A stretch of 60,852 bases of DNA. It comes from Candidatus Zambryskibacteria bacterium RIFCSPLOWO2_02_FULL_39_26 (GTDB taxonomy: Bacteria; Patescibacteriota; Minisyncoccia; Phycocordibacterales; DATDWN01). This document shows, piece by piece, positions 3,750-54,691 of the stretch (position 1 is the first letter of the stretch; every line of letters starts with the position of its first letter). The notes under the pieces were generated by a model that was not told the DNA's origin, searched no databases, and saw only the letters and a program-made list of their open reading frames with translations. Location of the stretch: the NCBI GenBank assembly GCA_001825395.1, contig MHWN01000025.1, positions 1-60,852 on the forward strand. Reading direction: 5' to 3'. A program made the translations under genes and the position numbers.

Positions 3750-4306
3750 AAATTAAACCTATTAATTAAATGTTGTTCGTTATCTATTTTATCAGCTAGA
3801 ATAAAACGCACATATTTTCTAGCATCGTAAAATTCTACAATAAATTCAACTTCCTTATTGCAAGGATAGGGGCACACTAAAACTGATTTTTGAAGTTCAA
3901 CAAGTCCCAACTGGCGGAAATGGAAACGCAACGAATTGCGTAATTTTTTTAATCTTTCAGGAACATCAAACATCACTACTCGCCATTTTTTATCCCATTG
4001 GCGCGGTTTTTTGATTTTCATTTTATCAATATTGAACCGCAAAGCTTCCCGCTTACCGTTTTCGCTTAAAATCAAAGTCATTGTCCCGTCTTCATGATAT
4101 TCTTCTTTTACTAGACGAGAAGTGCGTAAGGAGCCAACCGCTCTATTTAATGCTTGACGGTTAATCTTTCCCCACTCTTTAGGTATTTGTTTTAGTATCT
4201 GTAAATGTTTCTTGGGTGACTTGGTCAAACTTAACGCGAGACCCGCGTACAATATTAAAAGTATTTTCTTTTTTAACTTTCCTATTCTTTGGTCGTTTTG
4301 TTTCAT
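3743..4306 (-). CDS. PaaX-like / Cas2-fold domain protein (putative DNA-binding regulator)
   Basis: N-terminal wHTH-like region. C-terminal WDKKWRVVMFDVPE..LR..LR..L..LG...LQKSV pattern shared by the PaaX C-terminal and Cas2-like folds. Confidence 0.6.
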   Translation of the reverse strand: MKQNDQRIGKLKKKILLILYAGLALSLTKSPKKHLQILKQIPKEWGKINRQALNRAVGSLRTSRLVKEEYHEDGTMTLILSENGKREALRFNIDKMKIKKPRQWDKKWRVVMFDVPERLKKLRNSLRFHFRQLGLVELQKSVLVCPYPCNKEVEFIVEFYDARKYVRFILADKIDNEQHLINRFNLS

Positions 4307-8921: not shown

Positions 8922-9518
8922 CTAGATTAGGGCGAGGATCTGATCGGCTTCCCGCCGTCGCGCGGCCAGGATTTGCCCCCGCCTCTCGGTCCCGCCCTGG
9001 ATCGTTTCCCGGGTCAGTCTTTTCTGGCGTGCAACCTCTTGGCGAACTTTGTCACGCTTCTCTTGCGCGACGTCGGCCTCCCACAACGCCTTACACATGG
9101 CGTTGTAGAGCGCCACACGCTGGGCGAAGGTGCCGCTGGTCTCCACCATCACGGCCTTCTCGAGTTCCGTCCGGCAGCTCTCGAGATGCTCCATGATGTC
9201 GGGATCGTAACCCTCCTCCTCGCGCCGGATGCCCAGTTCGCGGTTGAACTTGGCCTCGCGGATTTGGTCGCCTTCTATTTTGCGATCGACGACCGAGTGG
9301 CGCAGGAACGACCCGAGAATGTTCCGGCCAGCCTTCAAGGTCTCAATGCCGACTTTGATTGCATAGCCGTCCTCCCCTGAGTCAATGGCTCTGGCCATGG
9401 ACTGGAGACCCTCGGCGATGACCTCGCTCACTCTGAAGCCCTGAACGGACTTCATGACTTTGACGAGGTCAACAATCTGGGTCTTCACCGAGTCGAGTGT
9501 TGGGGTATTGTTTGCCAT
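8922..9518 (-). CDS. GC-rich orphan protein (all-helical, R/E-rich C-terminus)
   Basis: ORF is clearly GC-richer than its flanks. GGGAGA SD lies 7 nt before the ATG at 9518. Has its own terminator. No recognisable motif. Confidence 0.6.
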   Translation of the reverse strand: MANNTPTLDSVKTQIVDLVKVMKSVQGFRVSEVIAEGLQSMARAIDSGEDGYAIKVGIETLKAGRNILGSFLRHSVVDRKIEGDQIREAKFNRELGIRREEEGYDPDIMEHLESCRTELEKAVMVETSGTFAQRVALYNAMCKALWEADVAQEKRDKVRQEVARQKRLTRETIQGGTERRGQILAARRREADQILALI

Positions 9519-10550: not shown

Positions 10551-11237
10551 ATGTCCGAAAAATTATCTGTGCCGATAGCAATAGTAATAGCTGGAGGATT
10601 AATCGCAGGAGCTTTGTATTATTCAAATATCAAATCTTCCAAAGTGTCCGTTGCTCCTGTGGTAAACAACGAGAGCGCCAGTTTTATGAGACCGGTTTCT
10701 TCAAGTGACCACATTCTCGGAAATCCAAAGGCCGATGTGGTGATAGTTGAATACTCCGATACCGAATGTCCTTTTTGCAAGCAATTTCACGTAACATTAA
10801 AGCGAGTAATGGCCGAGTACGGAAATGCAGGAAAGGTAGCTTGGGTTTACAGACATTTCCCCATTGACAGTCTTCATTCAAAAGCCAGAAAGGAAGCCGA
10901 AGCCCTTGAATGTGCAAACGAACTAGGTGGACCTGAAAAGTTCTGGGAATATACCAATCTTTTGTACGAAATTACTCCTTCCAACAACAGCTTGGACCCG
11001 GCAGAACTTCCTAAAATAGCCAAAACGGTCGGACTTGATGATAAAGCTTTCAACACCTGTTTATCAAGCGGAAAATACAAAGACAAGGTTGAAGCGGACT
11101 ATCAGAACGCCGTCAAATCCGGTGGTCGCGGCACTCCTCATTCAATACTTGTTTCAAAAGACGGTCTGCAAACTGTTGTTCAAGGAGCCCAGCCTTATGA
11201 GAATCTCAAGCTGACAATAGACGCCATACTTAAGTAA
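10551..11237 (+). CDS. DsbA-family thiol:disulfide oxidoreductase, membrane-anchored
   Basis: N-terminal TM helix, CPFC active site and a thioredoxin-like DsbA layout. Confidence 0.85.
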   Translation: MSEKLSVPIAIVIAGGLIAGALYYSNIKSSKVSVAPVVNNESASFMRPVSSSDHILGNPKADVVIVEYSDTECPFCKQFHVTLKRVMAEYGNAGKVAWVYRHFPIDSLHSKARKEAEALECANELGGPEKFWEYTNLLYEITPSNNSLDPAELPKIAKTVGLDDKAFNTCLSSGKYKDKVEADYQNAVKSGGRGTPHSILVSKDGLQTVVQGAQPYENLKLTIDAILK

Positions 11238-11255: not shown

Positions 11256-14213
11256 CTATTTCAACAGCTTTCTAAGCGAGCAGTATTCGCAATTTTTGTC
11301 TCTACAAGTTTTATCCCAAAAAGAAAGTGATTTTATTTCTTCAGCAAATTTAAGAATTATCTGTTTTAATTCCTTAATCTCGCTTTCCTTTATCTCAAAT
11401 TCCTCCTTATTGTATTTCCCGCTGGTATTCGGCTCTAAAAATTCTACCACTCCGGAAGTCATTTCCAAGTCATCGTTAAGTATAAGCAATAGTTTGTAAA
11501 AGACAAGTTGTCTTTTTATATCCCCCGTTCTCTCTTTGGTCTTGCCCTCTATGAAATTCCTGGTTTTTGGAGAGCCGGTTTTGTAATCGGTAACAATGGC
11601 TTTTTTAGGAGAAACAAATTCAACTTTATCCAATTTCCCGGAAAGAACAATACCTGATGATAGTTCTGCGCCTTTTATGGAAAACTCTGAAACGACGGGG
11701 TTATTGATTTTTGGATTGGCCCATAAAAGCCACCCGGAAAGAGCCTTCTCCCCTCTCTTCAGGGCTTCCTCAAACTCGCTCTGCCGAAGCACCCCAAGAA
11801 GGCCCAAGTGCCGTTTATAGGAAGACAGCAAGAATTTTTTATCTACTTCCCTGTCTTTCATGGCCTTCCATAAATCTTCTACAGCATTGTGCATGGCAAT
11901 GCCATAAATCTGGTGCTTTTCCGGAGCGGTCGGGATACGTAGTAAATTTCTGTAAAAATATTTCCAAGGGCAAGTTAGATAGTTGTTCAGTGCGGTAACC
12001 GACAGCGGATGGGAATTAAAAAGTTCGGTTACAAACTTACGATCTATTTCCCTACCACCGGTTTTTTGTCTTTCGGCATAAAGTTTTTTTGGATCAGATT
12101 TAAGGTTTTTTTCAAACTGTTGCGTTTTTAATTTTTCTTTTCTATCTTCTCTAATTTCCAAAATAAACGGTGATGGTAGTATTTCTTTCCCATTCTCATC
12201 AAATGAGGAGTATGTTATATAAGCTTCAAACTTGGCCCGAGTCATGGCCACATAAAAAAGCCTTCTCTCATCCTCCTCTGTTCCCGTATCCAACTTGGAA
12301 ACGGCGTTTCCAAGTGAGTAAATAGACGGTATAAGACGTAAGGCATCCCGGTCTGCTTTTGACCCAAACGACCTCTCACCAGCGTTAATTATAAAAACAT
12401 ACTCAAACTCAAGCCCTTTGGACCGATGGGTAGTCATCAGCCGAATAGCATCTTCTCTTATATTATGCTTTGGCTTTTTTATAAAAATTTTCCTTTTCTG
12501 TATTATGGAAATATATCGCATGAAGTCGGAAAATCCTGCCCCGCGCATATTAGCCGAAATTCTTTTACCTTCCTCAAAAAATTTCTCAATCCCAAGAAAA
12601 GCTTCCGCATCTCGAGATCTAATCATAGAATCCAAAAGTCCAGATTCTCGCAAAATTCTTTCCAAAAACTCTGTAAGATGGTCATTTTTGGAGTGTCTAA
12701 CCCATTCTTTTAACTTACCGAAAAGTTTTTTAATGGGAGGGATACCAGATTTTGACATCAAAACATATATGGACTGTCTTTTTCTTCCTGCCTCGTTTAT
12801 TAGACGGAACGCGTCCACTGGGTCAATATCAAACTCTTCAATATGTAAAACCGGTACCAGAAACTGATCATTTTCGAAATTCTCTATAGCCAAAAGAATG
12901 GCAAGTATTTTACGAACAAATCTTTCTCCTAAAAGATTTTCATCCGACTCAATAGAATATATGATACCGGATTTCTCCAACACTTCTGCTAACGGGAAAG
13001 CTTCTTTGTTGGAACGGTATAGGATAGTAATTTCTTTTGGAGAGACATTCTTTTTCAATAACTCTTTTATTTTTTCGGCAATAAAATACAATTCAACATT
13101 TTTATCCGTGAATTCTCCAACTTTAATGTTTGAAACTTTTTTCTTATCGCTTGAAATAAGTTGTCCACCGGGCGAAAGAAGCGAGTGAGCGGCATCCAAA
13201 ATATTTTGGCCGGACCGGTAGTTTATTCCAAGCCTGACCAGTTTGGCCTTCGGATAAAGTTTTTTAAAGTAGTTGAAATTCTCAATTGAAGCACCTTGAA
13301 AACGGAAAATGGCTTGTTTTTCGTCCCCAACAATGAAGATATTGGGGTTTTTGTGAAAATCGCCCATCATTTCCAAAATTTTGTTCTGGGCATTGTTGGT
13401 ATCCTGATGTTCGTCAACTAAAATATATTGGTGGTTTTCCTGAAGATTGAGTTTCAAATCAGGATATTTTTCAATACCCTGCAAGACTTCCATAATCATA
13501 TCGCTCCAGTCATATAAGCGTTTCTCGCCTAAAATCTTCTGATAAGCGGCGTAGACCATGGCCAGTTCCTTATTTTTTTCCAGTTGTCTTTCAAAATCTT
13601 TGTGTTCGCTTTTCATCTTGCCTTTGTGAGCGCCTTTCTCATGAATGAGATCATCTCTAGACTTAAAGCGCCTTTCTTCTTTAGCCAGAAGCTCTGTAAA
13701 TTTTTCAGGCGATATTCCTTCCCTTTTCAACTCCTCAATTTTTTTGTAAATATCGCGGATATAGTAAAACGGGTCACCCCAAGGTTTGAGAATCTGAAGC
13801 AACAATTTTTCTATGAGTCCTTCTAAGATATCCACACTTTCAACTTCTGTAATGTTGCTAGAACCAATGATTGTCGGGAAATATTCAGGGTAATCTTTTA
13901 TTATTTTGTTGCAAAAGCTATGGAAAGTCTCAATGTTTACCCGATAAGCCGAGGCCTCAATAAGACTTATGAGTCTCCGTCTCATATTGCCCGATGCGGC
14001 ATCGGTAAAAGTCAAAGCCAAAATATTTTCCGGTTTGGTGTCAGTTTTCTTTAAAATATTGGCAATGCGCAAAGTTAGAATCTCGGTCTTGCCCGTCCCC
14101 GGTCCAGCCACAACCAAAACTGGGCCCTCAATAGTATCAACTGCCTCCTTTTGTTCCTTGTTTAGAGCTTTATATCGCTCTTCAAACCCTTCGTCAAATT
14201 TAGTTCTAACCAT
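11256..14213 (-). CDS. UvrD/PcrA-type helicase fused to a C-terminal PD-(D/E)XK nuclease with Cys cluster (AddB/Cas4-like)
   Basis: GPGTGKT Walker A, DEHQDT, helicase motifs through TTHRSKGLEF. C-terminal TCPWKY...DYKTG...QLVFYKLL...CRDKNCEYC. Confidence 0.85.
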   Translation of the reverse strand: MVRTKFDEGFEERYKALNKEQKEAVDTIEGPVLVVAGPGTGKTEILTLRIANILKKTDTKPENILALTFTDAASGNMRRRLISLIEASAYRVNIETFHSFCNKIIKDYPEYFPTIIGSSNITEVESVDILEGLIEKLLLQILKPWGDPFYYIRDIYKKIEELKREGISPEKFTELLAKEERRFKSRDDLIHEKGAHKGKMKSEHKDFERQLEKNKELAMVYAAYQKILGEKRLYDWSDMIMEVLQGIEKYPDLKLNLQENHQYILVDEHQDTNNAQNKILEMMGDFHKNPNIFIVGDEKQAIFRFQGASIENFNYFKKLYPKAKLVRLGINYRSGQNILDAAHSLLSPGGQLISSDKKKVSNIKVGEFTDKNVELYFIAEKIKELLKKNVSPKEITILYRSNKEAFPLAEVLEKSGIIYSIESDENLLGERFVRKILAILLAIENFENDQFLVPVLHIEEFDIDPVDAFRLINEAGRKRQSIYVLMSKSGIPPIKKLFGKLKEWVRHSKNDHLTEFLERILRESGLLDSMIRSRDAEAFLGIEKFFEEGKRISANMRGAGFSDFMRYISIIQKRKIFIKKPKHNIREDAIRLMTTHRSKGLEFEYVFIINAGERSFGSKADRDALRLIPSIYSLGNAVSKLDTGTEEDERRLFYVAMTRAKFEAYITYSSFDENGKEILPSPFILEIREDRKEKLKTQQFEKNLKSDPKKLYAERQKTGGREIDRKFVTELFNSHPLSVTALNNYLTCPWKYFYRNLLRIPTAPEKHQIYGIAMHNAVEDLWKAMKDREVDKKFLLSSYKRHLGLLGVLRQSEFEEALKRGEKALSGWLLWANPKINNPVVSEFSIKGAELSSGIVLSGKLDKVEFVSPKKAIVTDYKTGSPKTRNFIEGKTKERTGDIKRQLVFYKLLLILNDDLEMTSGVVEFLEPNTSGKYNKEEFEIKESEIKELKQIILKFAEEIKSLSFWDKTCRDKNCEYCSLRKLLK

Positions 14214-49983: not shown

Positions 49984-50100
49984 TAATTAAAAATGTAAAA
50001 ATCAAAATGAAAAATTACAATTCAAAATGAAAAGATAGGATTTAAAAATTTTGTATTTTACATTGTCATTTTTCATTTTGATTTTTAATATTTACATTTA
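49984..50100. repeat. AT-rich palindromic intergenic cassette, copy C
   Basis: taattaaaaatgtaaaaatcaaaatga...cattgtcatttttcattttgatttttaatatttacattta. Fills the gap from the rpiB stop to the rpe start. Confidence 0.75.
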
Positions 50101-50544
50101 ACTATATTGTTCTATTTTCTTAATTCTTCTCACATGCCGTTCGTCACCGGAAAACTTTACATGAAGAAAAAGATCTACTGCTCGTTTGGCTTCATCTTTT
50201 GTCAAAAAATCTGAACCGAGAGAAATCATATTGGCATCATCGTGTTCTCTTGAAAGAGTAATCATATGTTTTGAACCGCCATAAAAAACTGCGCATCTAA
50301 CATTTTGGAAACGATTGGAAACTATCGCCTCCCCCTGACCGTTACGGCCTATAACAATACCAATTACATTTTTTTCTTTAGAAATATGATCAGCAACAAT
50401 GGACACATAATCAGGGTAATCATCATCGTGGACATATTCTTTCGGACCGCAATCAATGATTTCATGATTATTCTGAAGTAAATAGGATATCAAATCCTTT
50501 TTCATTTCAAATCCGGCATGGTCACTCCCAATATATATTTTCAT
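50098..50544 (-). CDS. rpiB: Ribose-5-phosphate isomerase B
   Basis: IYIGSDHAGFEMK, GIVIGRNGQGEAI and NVRCAV. Confidence 0.9.
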   Translation of the reverse strand: MKIYIGSDHAGFEMKKDLISYLLQNNHEIIDCGPKEYVHDDDYPDYVSIVADHISKEKNVIGIVIGRNGQGEAIVSNRFQNVRCAVFYGGSKHMITLSREHDDANMISLGSDFLTKDEAKRAVDLFLHVKFSGDERHVRRIKKIEQYS

Positions 50545-50587
50545 TAATTGTATTATATCAAGAACTTCACTAAATTATAAGTTTATA

Positions 50588-51568
50588 TTAGTAATTCGAA
50601 ATTCCTATACTTTTCTGTAATTTATATGTGTTTCCATGACCCAATAATCCTCTGTAGGAATTTATAGTTTCTGGTCTTGGATACCATTTCATATTTTTGA
50701 CTACTTTTCTTTTTGTAGTTGTTCTAATAACTCGGTGATGAGGAAAATGAATCCAGCCAAGAAAATCTACCCCAAAAGCGTAAGTTTGTATAAAAACTTT
50801 GTCAGGATGGAGAGAGAGGTGAAGTTTATCTTTTAAGAAAAACTCAATCTTTAACAGAAGACTTTCCAAATAACTTTTATCTTCTGAAAGAACTATGAAG
50901 TCGTCGGCATACCGAATATAATACTTTACTCGAAGTTCCTCCTTCATATACATATCAAATTCGTGCATATAAATATTGACTAATAATTGAGAAGTGAGAT
51001 TGCCGAGTGGTAAACCGATACCAATATCAGTTGTATGAAAACTTTTTACAACTTGACCAATTAGCCATTTGATTTCTCGATCTTCAATATGGCATTCGAG
51101 AATTTTCATGAGAACTTCCTGGTCAACCGAAGCAAAGAATTTCCGTATATCGCATTTCAATGCGTAGCATATTTTTGTATGATTTTTTGAGACTTTTCCT
51201 GCAAATAATTTAAACCTGTCCAGCGCCCTATGTGTTCCTTTATCTTTTCGGCAAGAATACGAGTCAAAAATAAATCGCTCATTAAAATACTGGTACAATT
51301 CTTTGTATATCAAGTGATGGATAACTCTGTCTCGGACGAGAGCTTTGTGAATATTTCTCGGCTTTGGATCGGACAGGTTAAAAGCCGAGTACCCACTGTG
51401 TTTGTATGTTCTACTTTGAAGTTCTCTGTAGAGAAGCGTCAAATTATCAGCAAGCTGTAACTGAAAAGTAACAACATCTTTTTTCTTTCGTTTACCACGA
51501 ATAAAATTCTCCCATGTTGCCAAAAGATTTTCTATGGTTATGATGTCTGTATATTTAGGAATAAACAT
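50588..51568 (-). CDS. DGR-type reverse transcriptase
   Basis: RT motifs 1-7, IRYADDFIVL (YxDD) and GLPLGNLTSQLLVN, the (I/L)GxxxSQ signature of DGR RTs. 326 aa with no maturase or endonuclease domain. Confidence 0.9.
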   Translation of the reverse strand: MFIPKYTDIITIENLLATWENFIRGKRKKKDVVTFQLQLADNLTLLYRELQSRTYKHSGYSAFNLSDPKPRNIHKALVRDRVIHHLIYKELYQYFNERFIFDSYSCRKDKGTHRALDRFKLFAGKVSKNHTKICYALKCDIRKFFASVDQEVLMKILECHIEDREIKWLIGQVVKSFHTTDIGIGLPLGNLTSQLLVNIYMHEFDMYMKEELRVKYYIRYADDFIVLSEDKSYLESLLLKIEFFLKDKLHLSLHPDKVFIQTYAFGVDFLGWIHFPHHRVIRTTTKRKVVKNMKWYPRPETINSYRGLLGHGNTYKLQKSIGISNY

Positions 51569-51614
51569 AAAAAACTATAGCATGAGAAATTACACCACAA
51601 ATAATTCAGTTAAG

Positions 51615-51625
51615 CCCCCCCCCCC
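51615..51625. repeat. Homopolymeric C11 tract in the RT/avd divergent region
   Basis: Counted directly as gCCCCCCCCCCCg. Lies 21 nt upstream of the avd GTG. Confidence 0.9.
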
Positions 51626-51646
51626 GCACAGACCCCGCTTGTATTA

Positions 51647-51976
51647 GTGCGTGCGAAACAAGCATACCAGATTTGGCACCAATATCTCTCAAACCTTAAA
51701 CGTCCGGATCGTGATACTATTGGAATTAAAATTGACGACATATTTCTCTCGTTACTTGAATTCATTTTCCGTGCCTGTTTTGCTTATGACAAATTTGAAA
51801 AACTTTCTATGTTGTCCCAAGCTATCGCAAAGAATGATCTGATTAAATTCTTCTTACAAATTAGCTGGGAGCAAAAAATTCTTGATCACAAGCAATACGG
51901 GTCTCTCATTCTTCTGTTTGATGAAGTCGGTCGACAACTTTACGGTTGGAAAAAAGATACTCAAGAAAAGCTTTAA
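51647..51976 (+). CDS. avd: Avd-like four-helix-bundle accessory protein (opposite strand to RT, TR and VR)
   Basis: About 109 aa and all-helical. C-terminal KQYGSLILLFDEVGRQLYGWKK resembles the Avd / 23S-IVS-protein family ending (..EIG+MLGGW.K). GTG start. Confidence 0.7.
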   Translation: MRAKQAYQIWHQYLSNLKRPDRDTIGIKIDDIFLSLLEFIFRACFAYDKFEKLSMLSQAIAKNDLIKFFLQISWEQKILDHKQYGSLILLFDEVGRQLYGWKKDTQEKL

Positions 51977-51983
51977 TACCAAA

Positions 51984-52013
51984 CTCTCCCTCCCTACTAG
52001 CAGGGAGGGAGAG
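51984..52013. other. 12-bp-stem hairpin ctctccctccct-actagc-agggagggagag between the avd stop and the TR 3-prime end
   Basis: Read directly from the sequence. Lies 8 nt after the avd stop and 5-13 nt from the TR end. Confidence 0.8.
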
Positions 52014-52018
52014 AAACA

Positions 52019-52155
52019 AACCAGTGGCAGAAGCACAGGAGGCAGTTGTTGTCGTTCCAGTCACCCTCCCAGTTGCCGAGGTTGAACTTGAAGTCGCCAG
52101 CCGAGTCCCGGTACACGTCCGGTACCTTGTGGTAGTCGCCGCTGAACCAAAGTGC
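52019..52155 (-). repeat. DGR template repeat (TR); core 52027..52155 plus an IMH*-like 3-prime extension
   Basis: 129-nt core aligned to the VR. Every mismatch is a T on the plus strand, which is an A on the transcribed sense strand. Confidence 0.9.
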
Positions 52156-52458
52156 AATGTACATCATACTGTCCGGATCTCCACCGAAAGTAGCACCGGC
52201 CACCTTCTGAATTTTATGCCGAGCCTTTGTTCGAATATGTATGCTCGATAGTATGATGCACCGACTTATTTGTTTTTTTCGCAAGAGGCAGTTCTCATTC
52301 GCAAAGCTAAGCTAAAAAATACTATTGACTATTGCCCGACAAACCCTGACTGATTTCTCTTACGAGATATCGGTAGTATGAAACCGTAGCCGCATACCTA
52401 ATCGAATATCCAAAGATAGTATACATAAAATTTCAAAATAAAAAATAGTTGGAAATGG

Positions 52459-52480
52459 CCCCTACTTGCGTAGGGGCCAG
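52459..52480 (-). terminator. Terminator of the DGR target gene (GC stem with a GCAA loop on the minus strand)
   Basis: ggcccctac-ttgc-gtaggggcc followed by a T-run on the minus strand. Confidence 0.75.
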
Positions 52481-52523
52481 AGAGGAACGAAGGATCAAAG
52501 AATCGAAGAAGATGCCTAAGCGA

Positions 52524-53249
52524 CTAAGTGCCAGAGGTCTGGGGCAAGTCGCAGAAGCACAGGAGGCAGTCGTTGTCGCTCCAGCCACCCTCCCAGTAGC
52601 CGAGGTCGAACCTGAAGCCGCCAGCCGAGTCCCGGTACACGCCCGGCACCTTGCGGTAGTCGCCGCCGAACCAAAGTGCGACCTTCTCGTCGAAGGAAAC
52701 TGACCATTTGCCTTTCGGCAAGTTGTCCTTACCCTGTTCGTACGCCAGACTTGCACCTTGCGCACCGACCAGAACTGCTCTTTCGGAACGGAGCTTTGTC
52801 AGGCACTCGTCCGACGTCACAGTCTTCTTGATGCCGAAGACCTTGACCGCGAACTTTCGGCCGGGCGTGAGTTGCGTCGTCGCCTTGACGTAGTTCGCGT
52901 CGGTGATGTTCGGATTGTAGTAATAGAACTCCGACTTGTGCGCCGCGGCGAACGTGTCGAGGCGAGTGGCGTGGTCGTAACCTTCGGGAATCGTGACTTC
53001 GAAGGTGGTCAGAAGCTCGAACTTCTCGGGCTTCGGTTTCGGTGGTGTGACAATCGCCGTTTTCAATTCGGTGATCACCACTCCATCACTAACCTGCTTG
53101 ATAGTAGTGTTCACTCCAGCAGGGTCTACCCCTCCGGAAATGAAACGGTTCACAAGTTCCGGCAACCGAGTTCCGAAAAACAACTCATGCTCTTCCACTG
53201 TCGGCTTTCTCTTGCCGATACCGTCTGCGACAACATAGCTGGTCGTCAT
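52524..53249 (-). CDS. DGR target (variable) protein, 241 aa, GC-rich
   Basis: AAGGAG SD 8 nt upstream. The VR encodes ALWFGGDYRKVPGVYRDSAGGFRFDLGYWEGGWSDNDCLLCFC near the C-terminus. No obvious signal peptide. Confidence 0.85.
   Translation of the reverse strand: MTTSYVVADGIGKRKPTVEEHELFFGTRLPELVNRFISGGVDPAGVNTTIKQVSDGVVITELKTAIVTPPKPKPEKFELLTTFEVTIPEGYDHATRLDTFAAAHKSEFYYYNPNITDANYVKATTQLTPGRKFAVKVFGIKKTVTSDECLTKLRSERAVLVGAQGASLAYEQGKDNLPKGKWSVSFDEKVALWFGGDYRKVPGVYRDSAGGFRFDLGYWEGGWSDNDCLLCFCDLPQTSGT
52543..52679 (-). repeat. DGR variable repeat (VR); core 52551..52679 plus an IMH-like 3-prime segment
   Basis: See TR. The A-free identical block CTGCCTCCTGTGCTTCTGC sits at the 3-prime end. 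Confidence 0.9.
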
Positions 53250-53296
53250 GTGACAGTCTCCTTTTTTCCTGGTTTCTGCCAGGTCAGTCTATTGAG

Positions 53297-53326
53297 ATTA
53301 TATCATACCCAGCTCACAAAAGTCAA
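53297..53326 (-). promoter_or_regulatory. Near-consensus sigma70 promoter for the target gene: TTGACT-N18-(TGA)TATAAT
   Basis: The minus strand reads ttgacttttgtgagctgggtatgatataat, about 45 nt upstream of the ATG. Confidence 0.55.
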
Positions 53327-53430
53327 TAGCTGAAAAAAATGGCTAGAAACAAGGACTTTTAGTCACAAATAGTTGGTATGGTTCAAAAACTTTCCAATTT
53401 GAGACAATGTCGCGTATAAAATTTAAAAAC

Positions 53431-53480
53431 TACTCCATACGTTACAATGTTGCTATAGCAACATTGTAACGTATGGAGTA
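53431..53480. repeat. 50-bp perfect palindrome
   Basis: tactccatacgttacaatgttgcta|tagcaacattgtaacgtatggagta, lying between the gap stop and the DGR target promoter. Confidence 0.85.
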
Positions 53481-53662
53481 TAAATTTTCATTTTTTGTAA
53501 CTTTCTAAGATATATATACATCCATCAACTGATACATCATGCCATTCTCGACCTTCAGATATTACTTTATTATAGGCTGCGACTCGTTCCTTACAATACT
53601 TTATATCTTTTTCTATGCCACTGTTTGTTACATTTTTATTTATGAAAAAAAATGCAAATCAA

Positions 53663-54691
53663 TTATAAAAAACTTGCGGTTTTGACGACATGCTCCACAA
53701 GCGAGTATGTATAGCCCATCTCGTTGTCATACCAAGCCATCACTTTGACCAAATTCCCTCCGACAACACGGGTAAGCGAAAGATCGGCGATGGAAGCGAA
53801 CTTGCTTCCAATAATATCTGATGAGACTATCGGGTCTTCGGTAACAGAAAATACTTTATTCCAATGGTCATCCTGCGCCGCTTTTTTCAAAATATCATTT
53901 ATTTCTTCAACTGAAGTTGGACGACTTGAAATAAAAGTGATATCGGCGATTGAACCGGCAACAACCGGCACTCTCATGGCCAGACCGTCAAACTTGCCGG
54001 CAAGAGAGGTGATGGCTTTGGTCACCGCTTCGGCTGAACCGGTTTTAGTTGGCACTATGTTTTGGGCAGCCGCTCTTCCCTCTTTAAAATCTTTGGCGTT
54101 CATGCTGTCCACCACGCTTTGACTGGCAGTGTAACCATGAACGGTATCTAGAATGGCTTTTTCAATTCCGACGGTTTGGCGCAAAATTTCCAAAACAGGA
54201 CTTCCGGCATTTGTGGTGCAGGATGCATTCGATGTCACAACTTTTTCTTTTAACAAATCGCAATTCACTCCAATAAGTATCGTACCTTCATCCGCGGCAG
54301 ATGCTTCTCCATGAGCCGGCGCGGTAATAACAACCTTTTTTGCTCCAGCTGTTATATGGGCTCGGGCTTTTTCATATGAGGTGAAAAATCCGGTTGACTC
54401 AACCACCACATCAATATCCAAATCTTTCCAAGGCAAATTGGCCGGATCTTTTTCCGACAAGAACTTCACCTCTTTTCCATCAACCTCCATACTTTTTTTG
54501 TCTCCTGCCATTTTTATTCGAAACCCGCTCGGACCATAAACTGTGTCGTATTTGAGTAAGTAGGCAATGTTTTCTAAATCGCCAAGATCATTTATAGCCA
54601 CAACATCAATATCTTTTCTTTCTTGAGCAATTTTGAAAAAAGCTCGCCCAATTCGCCCACCGCCGTTAATAGCAACTTTTATTTTCTTCAT
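53663..54691 (-). CDS. gap: Type I glyceraldehyde-3-phosphate dehydrogenase
   Basis: INGGGRIGR, SNASCTTN active site and WYDNEMGY. Confidence 0.95.
   Translation of the reverse strand: MKKIKVAINGGGRIGRAFFKIAQERKDIDVVAINDLGDLENIAYLLKYDTVYGPSGFRIKMAGDKKSMEVDGKEVKFLSEKDPANLPWKDLDIDVVVESTGFFTSYEKARAHITAGAKKVVITAPAHGEASAADEGTILIGVNCDLLKEKVVTSNASCTTNAGSPVLEILRQTVGIEKAILDTVHGYTASQSVVDSMNAKDFKEGRAAAQNIVPTKTGSAEAVTKAITSLAGKFDGLAMRVPVVAGSIADITFISSRPTSVEEINDILKKAAQDDHWNKVFSVTEDPIVSSDIIGSKFASIADLSLTRVVGGNLVKVMAWYDNEMGYTYSLVEHVVKTASFL

Follow-up and report, generated by a model that had tools for sequence, protein, structure and literature searches.

Diversity-generating retroelements (DGRs) of the Candidate Phyla Radiation (CPR; Patescibacteria) were reportedly first surveyed by Paul et al. 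in 2017. According to Wu et al. 2018 (PMC5758913), 90% of the CPR DGRs show architecture B3, in which the template repeat (TR) and the reverse transcriptase (RT) gene enclose a reversed avd gene (TR-(avd)-RT), and CPR DGRs are described as interleaved with ribosomal protein genes. Roux et al. 2021 (PMC8144416) describe DGR clade 2 as cellular, aquatic and restricted to Patescibacteria, with targets that lack recognisable domains and may represent new C-type-lectin variants. Here, we analysed a stretch of 60,852 nucleotides from Candidatus Zambryskibacteria bacterium RIFCSPLOWO2_02_FULL_39_26 (contig MHWN01000025.1; the whole stretch is hereafter termed the window), which harbors at positions 50588-53249 a cassette composed of a target gene with a variable repeat (VR), a TR, avd and an RT gene. 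With a probability of about 95%, we consider this cassette a chromosomal DGR of the type dominant in CPR bacteria, with Candidatus Zambryskibacteria as its host.

With the exception of avd, the cassette is located on the minus strand in the order target/VR, TR, (avd), RT. The gene order, the reversed avd, the cellular chromosomal site and the groundwater Patescibacteria host are all the same as in the B3 DGRs of the CPR, and the architecture reveals no difference. Likewise, the target without Pfam or transmembrane domain, the adenine-specific mismatches and the embedding among ribosomal protein genes, the latter observed in two related loci (L003 and L013; related loci are designated by L numbers throughout), resemble the B3 and clade 2 elements. 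Judged from host and similarity rather than from the tree of Roux et al., the cassette would belong to clade 2. It is therefore not a novel kind of element: the cassette is ordinary and of a known kind, its type being already catalogued in CPR bacteria. The accession of the same locus in a second GenBank entry, MHWT01000014, was not present in those supplements of Roux et al. 2021 that were searched.

The DGR of Bordetella phage BPP-1 (mtd-avd-TR-brt) shares with the window the RT-Avd pair, the conserved residues contacting the incoming nucleotide and the template, an adenine divergence that affects mostly AAC and GAC codons, the A-free GC-rich 3′ block, a stem-loop directly after the TR, and a GC hairpin downstream of the VR. 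However, the BPP-1 element is phage-borne, whereas the element studied here is cellular and carries avd on the opposite strand between TR and RT. Moreover, BPP-1 employs a 140-nt Spacer downstream of the TR, whereas a large conserved RNA structure is located upstream of the TR in the window, and the target is not Mtd-like, with a fold that only weakly resembles C-type lectins. An array of CTTNG pentamers, which follows the VR here, was not found described for BPP-1.

The adenine-specific repeat pair and its genes

The TR comprises a 129-nt core at 52027-52155 on the minus strand, with the repeat extending to 52023, and the VR is located at 52551-52679 (-), corresponding to codons 191-233 of the 241-codon target open reading frame (ORF) 52524..53249. 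When both were aligned without gaps at an offset of 524, we observed exactly 11 mismatches over 129 nt, all of which correspond to a plus-strand T in the TR, that is, to an A on the minus coding strand. The TR core contains 27 adenines, and the chance that 11 of 11 random positions fall on A is 4.9e-9. A>G accounts for 10 of the substitutions from TR to VR in the window, and A>T for one. An independent repeat finder retrieved the pair as 52023-52155 and 52547-52679, with 91% identity over 133 nt. Codon positions 1 or 2 harbor 25 of the 27 TR adenines. At the protein level, one change is silent and the other ten alter the amino acid (S>G, H>R, D>G three times, K>R, N>D twice, N>Y and N>S).

The same signature recurs in 16 homologous cassettes, where nearly every mismatch falls on a TR adenine, for example 17/18, 16/16, 11/11, 21/21, 20/20, 15/15 and 10/10. 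In these cassettes the mismatches include A>T and A>C, and the direction is always from A in the TR to any base (N) in the VR.

At the 3′ end of the repeats, the 19-nt A-free block CTGCCTCCTGTGCTTCTGC is identical in TR (52027-52045) and VR (52551-52569), and it is followed by GCGACTTG in the VR and by GCCACTGG in the TR. The first base outside the core at either end (52026 and 52156) is a non-adenine difference, and hence the core boundaries are the natural ends of the repeat. Furthermore, the base following ...TTCTGC is G in all 16 VRs examined, whereas any of the four bases may occur at this site in the TRs of the same 16 cassettes. This varying base would delimit the transfer of information on the 3′ side, as expected for an initiation of mutagenic homing (IMH)/IMH* boundary. 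The TR itself is non-coding and precedes the RT start on the same strand by 459 nt. A 95-codon ORF (51997-52284, -) crosses the TR in the reading frame of the VR; it is most likely a by-product of the TR copying coding sequence and not a gene.

An original prediction, made from the sequence of the locus alone, had proposed this repeat pair, and the computed alignment returned the same TR and VR coordinates and the same 11 mismatches, all at TR adenines, with the VR placed as predicted within the last ~50 codons of the target ORF. The estimate of roughly 27 adenines proved to be the actual count, the list of ten non-synonymous changes and a silent one was exact, and the identical A-free 3′ block and the divergent flank are both present as described. 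Non-adenine mismatches within the core, named in advance as evidence against a DGR, were looked for by alignment and did not occur. The description as strictly adenine-specific thus applies inside the 129-nt core, but not to positions 52026 and 52156 just outside it. As to the IMH/IMH*-like arrangement, the base pattern across the 16 cassettes agrees with a putative boundary of this kind.

The RT (326 aa; 50588..51568, -) contains the sequences GLPLGNLTSQ and RYADD and matches Pfam RVT_1 with 73 bits. It thereby carries the motif [I/L/V]GxxxSQ that characterizes DGR RTs in place of the QGxxxSP of group II RTs, together with the catalytic YxDD. The closest solved structure is the BPP-1 DGR RT (8ub7; 131.8 bits, E 3.8e-37), whereas the best group II intron RT and the retron-type chains reached 59 and 57 bits, respectively, in the same search of PDB sequences. 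In the alignment with 8ub7, the residues K29, F66, R74, I76, G182 and Q187 of the Bordetella enzyme (bRT) are kept; these six are the reported contacts to the template base and the incoming nucleotide. More than 8000 homologues of the RT were found, the best 120 of which share 67-99% identity, and those with a named source are nearly all from Patescibacteria.

The NCBIfam output for the cassette lists no DGR RT family, only one for Avd, and its top match to the RT, below threshold, is the group II intron RT/maturase model TIGR04416 (127 bits, cut-off 300); the models for retron St85, Drt2, Drt3a and Drt5 all score far under their cut-offs. Group II intron RT/maturases represent the sister RT lineage with RVT_1 homology in fingers and palm; however, the protein studied here differs by its length of 326 aa, by the lack of a maturase or endonuclease domain, and by the DGR motif LGNLTSQ. 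An Rfam search of positions 50000-54000 with E up to 1 yielded no DGR, group II intron or retron RNA. A group II intron identity was consequently rejected on the sub-threshold score, the lack of an intron RNA and the end of the protein after the thumb, and a retron or defence RT (DRT, Abi) identity on the sub-threshold models, the lack of a retron RNA and the housekeeping neighbours.

Between TR and RT, we located avd (109 aa; 51647..51976, +), which diverges from the RT gene and is encoded on the other strand than the rest of the cassette. Its product matches Pfam PF22296 bAvd with 43.0 bits (cut-off 40) and NCBIfam DivGenRetAVD with 37 bits, below the cut-off of 80. The place and orientation of avd are the same in all complete related cassettes, with identities of 56-76%. 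Two loci of the same clade lack avd (L047, ~1360-2953, and L048, 2377-3969); there, a structured RNA that also precedes the TR in the window (see below) is followed by a TR running into the region of the RT start codon, and 10/10 mismatches of the TR/VR pair are at adenines.

With RT, Avd, TR/VR and target all present, the reading as a complete DGR holds, and both YADD and LGNLTSQ are found in the RT ORF as predicted; however, the type is not unusual, representing a common CPR cassette. The original prediction had overlooked avd in its list of components. A closer relationship of the RT to group II intron or retron RTs, which would have contradicted it, was tested by the structure-database match and did not occur.

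The target gene (52524..53249, -) encodes a protein of 241 aa with a helical N-terminal part and a 170-aa C-terminal domain that includes the VR. The family comprises 111 close homologues and 1349 cluster representatives at 50% identity. Neither Pfam nor NCBIfam yielded a match to the target of the window, no Pfam domain was found in any of 75 family members, Pfam revealed no informative extra domain in six longer members, and a PDB profile search with the target likewise gave no match. The AlphaFold (AF2) model of the full-length protein has a predicted local distance difference test score (pLDDT) of 87.5, and residues 72-241 reach a pLDDT of 96.0 with a predicted template modelling score (pTM) of 0.90. 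In this model the VR corresponds to the last four beta-strands, and it makes up the last 43 structured codons of the 241-aa target. Foldseek retrieved no structure with E 0.001 or better, either for the full-length model, searched in PDB and BFVD, or for the domain model, searched in PDB. The sole fold that recurs among the top matches is C-type-lectin-like (E 0.016 or worse; TM 0.35-0.48), represented by CD23, mincle, NKR-P1 and viral C-type lectins along with EgtB, and none of the fold-search matches is a known DGR variable protein. These results are consistent with the description of clade 2 targets by Roux et al. 2021.

Upstream of the target gene, we observed a sigma-70-like promoter sequence (53297..53326, -) consisting of TTGACT, an 18-nt spacing and TGATATAAT. 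It is located 48 nt upstream of the ATG and agrees with the consensus at 11 of 12 positions, including an extended -10 element, which makes it a promoter candidate by consensus match.

Non-coding elements around the repeats

A structured RNA is predicted directly 5′ of the TR (52159..52275, -). It is composed of a leader strand (52264-52275) and a three-way junction of ~105 nt, for which RNAalifold indicates the helices P1 (52250-52261/52159-52170), P2 (52243-52247/52220-52224) and P3 (52186-52207). The junction contains conserved single strands, and P1 ends 3 nt short of the TR. Among 15 cassettes, RNAalifold proposed 30 pairs, 18 of which show compensatory changes. Pairing was maintained in 97.5% of the cells of the alignment, as compared to 84% in shuffles (0/500 reached the observed value) and 27-48% in slid controls. 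The covariance model R1, built from the 15 cassettes, gave one match per cassette with 63-163 bits, including seven metagenome loci that were not used in building it, and the RNA of the window scored 148.6 bits. The RNA occurs once in every cassette of the RT clade (L003, L013-L037, L044-L049 and L052), and no Rfam family was assigned to it at positions 50000-54000 with E up to 1. A pairing of the start of P3 (CAGAGG) with the 3′ end of the TR (CCTCTG) was also considered; it spans 5-7 nt in an inconstant register and was dismissed as likely due to chance.

The linker at the 3′ side of the TR (52014..52026, -; CACTGGTTTGTTT) represents the IMH*-like edge and at the same time the 3′ strand of a predicted long-range helix, P0. 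In both the minimum free energy and the centroid folds, the linker pairs with the leader at 52264-52275. Over 15 cassettes, 82.8% of the cells are paired in P0 compared to 29-52% in slid controls, with five compensatory pairs, the clearest of which are found in L030, L019/L027 and L017. The covariation support for P0 is thus moderate, as far as the alignment indicates. Formation of P0 closes the TR into a loop, and the invariant AAGUCGG of the leader is thereby placed next to the 3′ end of the TR.

Downstream of the TR, 13 nt after the core, an inverted repeat forms a terminator-like hairpin of 13 pairs with a tetraloop (51984..52013, -), which is followed by a weak T-run. A hairpin is present at the same site in all 16 cassettes, with 7-15 bp, commonly 9 bp, and with differing sequence. 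According to Handa et al. (bioRxiv 10.1101/2023.10.23.563531), Avd-binding stem-loops are located just downstream of the TR in 207 of 278 Avd-containing DGRs, the most common stem length is 9 bp, and the taxa covered include CPR. By analogy, the post-TR hairpin is a candidate for an Avd-binding stem-loop and/or a terminator of the TR RNA. As described there, the survey took in only 40 nt upstream of the TR and therefore could not have shown the 5′ domain. Since the antisense avd gene begins right after the hairpin, a 140-nt Spacer as in BPP-1 could not be accommodated on the 3′ side of the TR.

On the side of the VR, pentamers of the sequence CTTNG form an array in an 8-nt register (52488..52528, -) directly after the VR, the first unit of which includes the stop codon of the target. 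The sequence CTTNGNNNCTTNG is matched three times in the window, in each case within this array. In the flanks of 34 VRs we counted 113 copies of CTTNG, as compared to 19.6 +/- 4.1 in shuffled sequences, which corresponds to a roughly six-fold excess, and in 40 of 82 cases successive copies are spaced by exactly 8 nt. The pentamer is nearly absent from TR flanks (0.24 per flank), whereas the VR flanks of lone targets do carry it. The array is followed by the GC-rich hairpin GGCCCCTAC-GCAA-GTAGGGGCC (52457..52478, -), 68 nt past the repeat. A comparable GC hairpin with a T-run is found after the VR in most related loci, and we consider it a candidate for the terminator of the target gene and/or for a DGR target-site hairpin.

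A C11 tract, corresponding to G11 on the RT-sense strand, is located at 51615..51625 in the 78-nt intergenic region between the divergent avd and RT genes, and is the sole G/C homopolymer of at least 8 nt in the window. When the avd-RT intergenic regions of 17 cassettes were compared, the same spot is occupied by G6-G11 in 14 related cassettes and by (TG)13 in L014, and no such tract is present in L017. Among five assemblies of the strain of the window, we observed no change in the length of the tract. The only near-identical second strain (L056) is represented by a contig that starts inside the poly-G tract and is hence uninformative on its length. The poly-G or (TG)n tract may serve as a slipped-strand switch that renders mutagenesis phase-variable.

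Taken together, comparison among the cassettes indicates that the conserved RNA structures around the TR are themselves well supported. The 5′ RNA, P0, the pentamer array and the avd-RT intergenic tract are not represented in Rfam and were not found in the part of the literature that was searched; we regard them as leads.

Genomic context and related cassettes

The cassette is flanked by gapA on one side and rpiB on the other. The neighbours, nearly all of which are on the same strand, are RNR, gapA, the cassette, rpiB, rpe and a split transketolase gene (tkt), and farther out the window contains fba, the genes for L25 and S2, prfA, gyrB, rpoB, rpoC, dnaG and rpoD. Pfam identified no phage, integrase or transposase domain among the 27 ORFs of the window that were scanned, which together with the housekeeping neighbours bears out the claim of a chromosomal location free of phage genes. 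No further copy of TR, VR, RT, avd or target was found elsewhere in the window. The same locus was found again on contigs of 93-118 kb from Rifle groundwater assemblies. The target protein is identical to OHB09512.1/OHB12526.1 and the RT to OHB09510.1/OHB12528.1 from metagenome-assembled genomes of Candidatus Zambryskibacteria, with OHB09510 and OHB09512 being encoded on the above-mentioned MHWT01000014.

Between the gapA stop codon and the target promoter, a perfect loopless palindrome of 50 bp (25+25; 53431-53480) scores as a bidirectional terminator-like site. The contig of a close variant (L002) begins inside it, and the only Rfam matches at 50000-54000, of microRNA type and due to chance, fall on this palindrome.

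The base composition of the cassette is uneven. The target gene and the TR (52023-53249) have a G+C content of 54-59% and RT and avd (50588-51976) one of 34-37%, in a surrounding genome of ~40%. The same split is observed in L003 (54.5% vs 33%, host 37%), and the lone target in L005 has 53.6% in a host of 47%. Because it is kept in hosts of 37-47% G+C, we regard this split, as judged from these genomes, as a stable feature of the cassette and not as evidence of recent import.

Among 34 genome loci with a target homologue, ~18 show the order target(+), TR(+), avd(-), RT(+), and the others are lone targets or contain truncated RTs. Five metagenome loci found via the RT share the order target-TR-(avd)-RT. 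The cassette of L003 is 71% identical to that of the window at the nucleotide level across 2.7 kb. In L003 and L013 (6001-8767), the whole cassette is located together with a YafQ-like toxin gene between rplB and rpsS, and L005/L006 (6001-6774) carry a lone target flanked by adk and map. L001 (2381-3115) contains, beside efp and an HTH_38 gene and within different flanks, a target that is 98% identical to that of the window and shares its VR. Since homologous cassettes occupy differing genomic sites, the cassette or the target would be mobile, and the comparison implies that one or the other has moved.

Four loci (L014, L030, L037 and L046) contain two targets or VRs for one TR, the second target being located downstream of the RT in L014 and L046. 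In L003, from a Minisyncoccia genome, we also observed a family of ~110-nt intergenic repeats among the ribosomal protein genes, the copies of which (3924-4036, 9289-9424, 11048-11159, 12178-12284 and 12507-12622) are 75-86% identical.

Alternative explanations, activity and proposed mechanism

A repeat pair next to an RT could also result from an ordinary duplication of a gene 3′ end, modified by strand-biased transitions and located by chance beside a group II intron-like, retron or defence RT. Such an origin might be suggested by the fact that 10 of the 11 changes are of a single transition type, A>G, and that the best sub-threshold NCBIfam match of the RT is a group II RT/maturase, followed by Drt3a and retron models. 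However, these scores are far under the cut-offs (127 vs 300 and 74 vs 200) in an output that lists no DGR RT family, and the similarity of the RT to its counterpart in the BPP-1 DGR is twice that to any group II or retron RT. Moreover, group II intron and retron RNAs are absent according to Rfam, an Avd gene is present, and the 16 homologous cassettes repeat the adenine pattern with A>T and A>C, always from TR-A to VR-N. A fortuitous duplication is consequently so improbable that it can hardly be maintained. Slightly more weight, though still very little, may be given to the view that the element belongs to a phage, a prophage or another mobile element, as in BPP-1. The differing places of the homologous cassettes, namely gapA/rpiB in the window, rplB/rpsS in L003 and L013, and efp/HTH_38 in L001, would fit such a view, as would the G+C content of the target, ~20 points above that of the neighbours. 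However, the scanned ORFs of the window are free of phage, integrase and transposase domains, core genes adjoin the cassette on the contigs of 93-118 kb, and the G+C contrast is conserved in hosts of differing composition. Furthermore, the Patescibacteria clade is almost entirely cellular, according to Roux et al. 2021.

Several observations weigh against the reading as a chromosomal DGR. Five independent assemblies share one and the same consensus cassette including its VR, and the target protein recurred unchanged on the 24 contigs that were read, out of 37 collection blocks listing it; thus, diversification in this strain is rare, switched off, or purged. The proportion of A>G among the substitutions (10/11) is more biased than in some relatives, with L018, L026 and L029 showing a similar A>G excess. 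A consensus scan for a promoter of the TR RNA in the spacer between VR and TR revealed none. In addition, the C-type-lectin fold of the target is unproven, the model yielding a weak match only, and the RNA-protein interactions and the cis-priming would have to be carried over from BPP-1 by analogy.

These points raise the question whether an intact architecture could be accompanied by silence or near silence, with the differences between VR and TR reflecting past events. Besides the identity among the assemblies and contigs and the lack of a recognised TR promoter, the truncated RTs of L025, L028, L033 and L036 and the many lone targets, which represent decayed relatives, would be in line with a silent cassette. 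Conversely, the three ORFs are intact, the covarying RNA is fully kept with its 148.6 bits to R1, and minority variants are not visible in consensus assemblies. Moreover, L002 (JGI sample 3300009285), a close variant, has a changed VR: in 62 nt of the VR we observed 14 differences from the window, 12 of which are at TR-adenine sites and comprise A>C, A>T and A>G, whereas the remainder of the alignment, 781 nt, contains only 10. Within the VR, just the 3′ two-thirds is affected, and L002 shares the four 5′-most VR substitutions of the window. Such a pattern would be expected if a later homing event had replaced only the 3′ part of the VR. We therefore regard silence of the cassette as unlikely on balance, though it has to be taken seriously, and retain the reading as a chromosomal DGR of the CPR type.

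Transferred from BPP-1, such a DGR would operate as follows. The TR region would be transcribed as a non-coding RNA together with its flanks, and the complex of RT and Avd would bind these flanks, Avd probably at the stem-loop after the TR. Synthesis of the cDNA would begin near the 3′ end of the TR, with misincorporation opposite adenines, and might halt at the helix abutting the 5′ end of the TR, where P1 resembles a cPRT-stop. The cDNA would then replace the VR, beginning at the A-free GC-rich 3′ block and ending at a crossover of variable position on the 5′ side. In this way as many as 27 adenines, 25 of which occupy the first or second position of a codon, could be recoded, resulting in a diversified ligand-binding surface, whereas the scaffold and the TR would remain constant.

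With respect to priming, we hypothesize that the leader might be the source of the primer strand through P0. If true, P0 would put AAGUCGG next to the base that is templated first, at the position taken by the priming strand in BPP-1. A combined proposal, in which the cis-acting RNA for cDNA synthesis in this large Patescibacteria clade departs from the arrangement of the Bordetella prototype, the DGR RNA is "permuted" such that the primer strand is provided from the 5′ side via P0, the CTTNG array marks the target site, and the poly-G/(TG)n tract acts as a switch, is tentative and in its entirety rather doubtful.

As a DGR, the cassette adds nothing new: it repeats the most common cassette of a DGR-rich group and derives from the very aquifer dataset from which elements of this kind were reported. 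Its value is that of a clean and complete reference, with a perfect TR/VR pair, intact genes and an unambiguous chromosomal context. If the conserved non-coding parts are functional, they would show how priming, target recognition and switching are accomplished in DGRs with a reversed avd.

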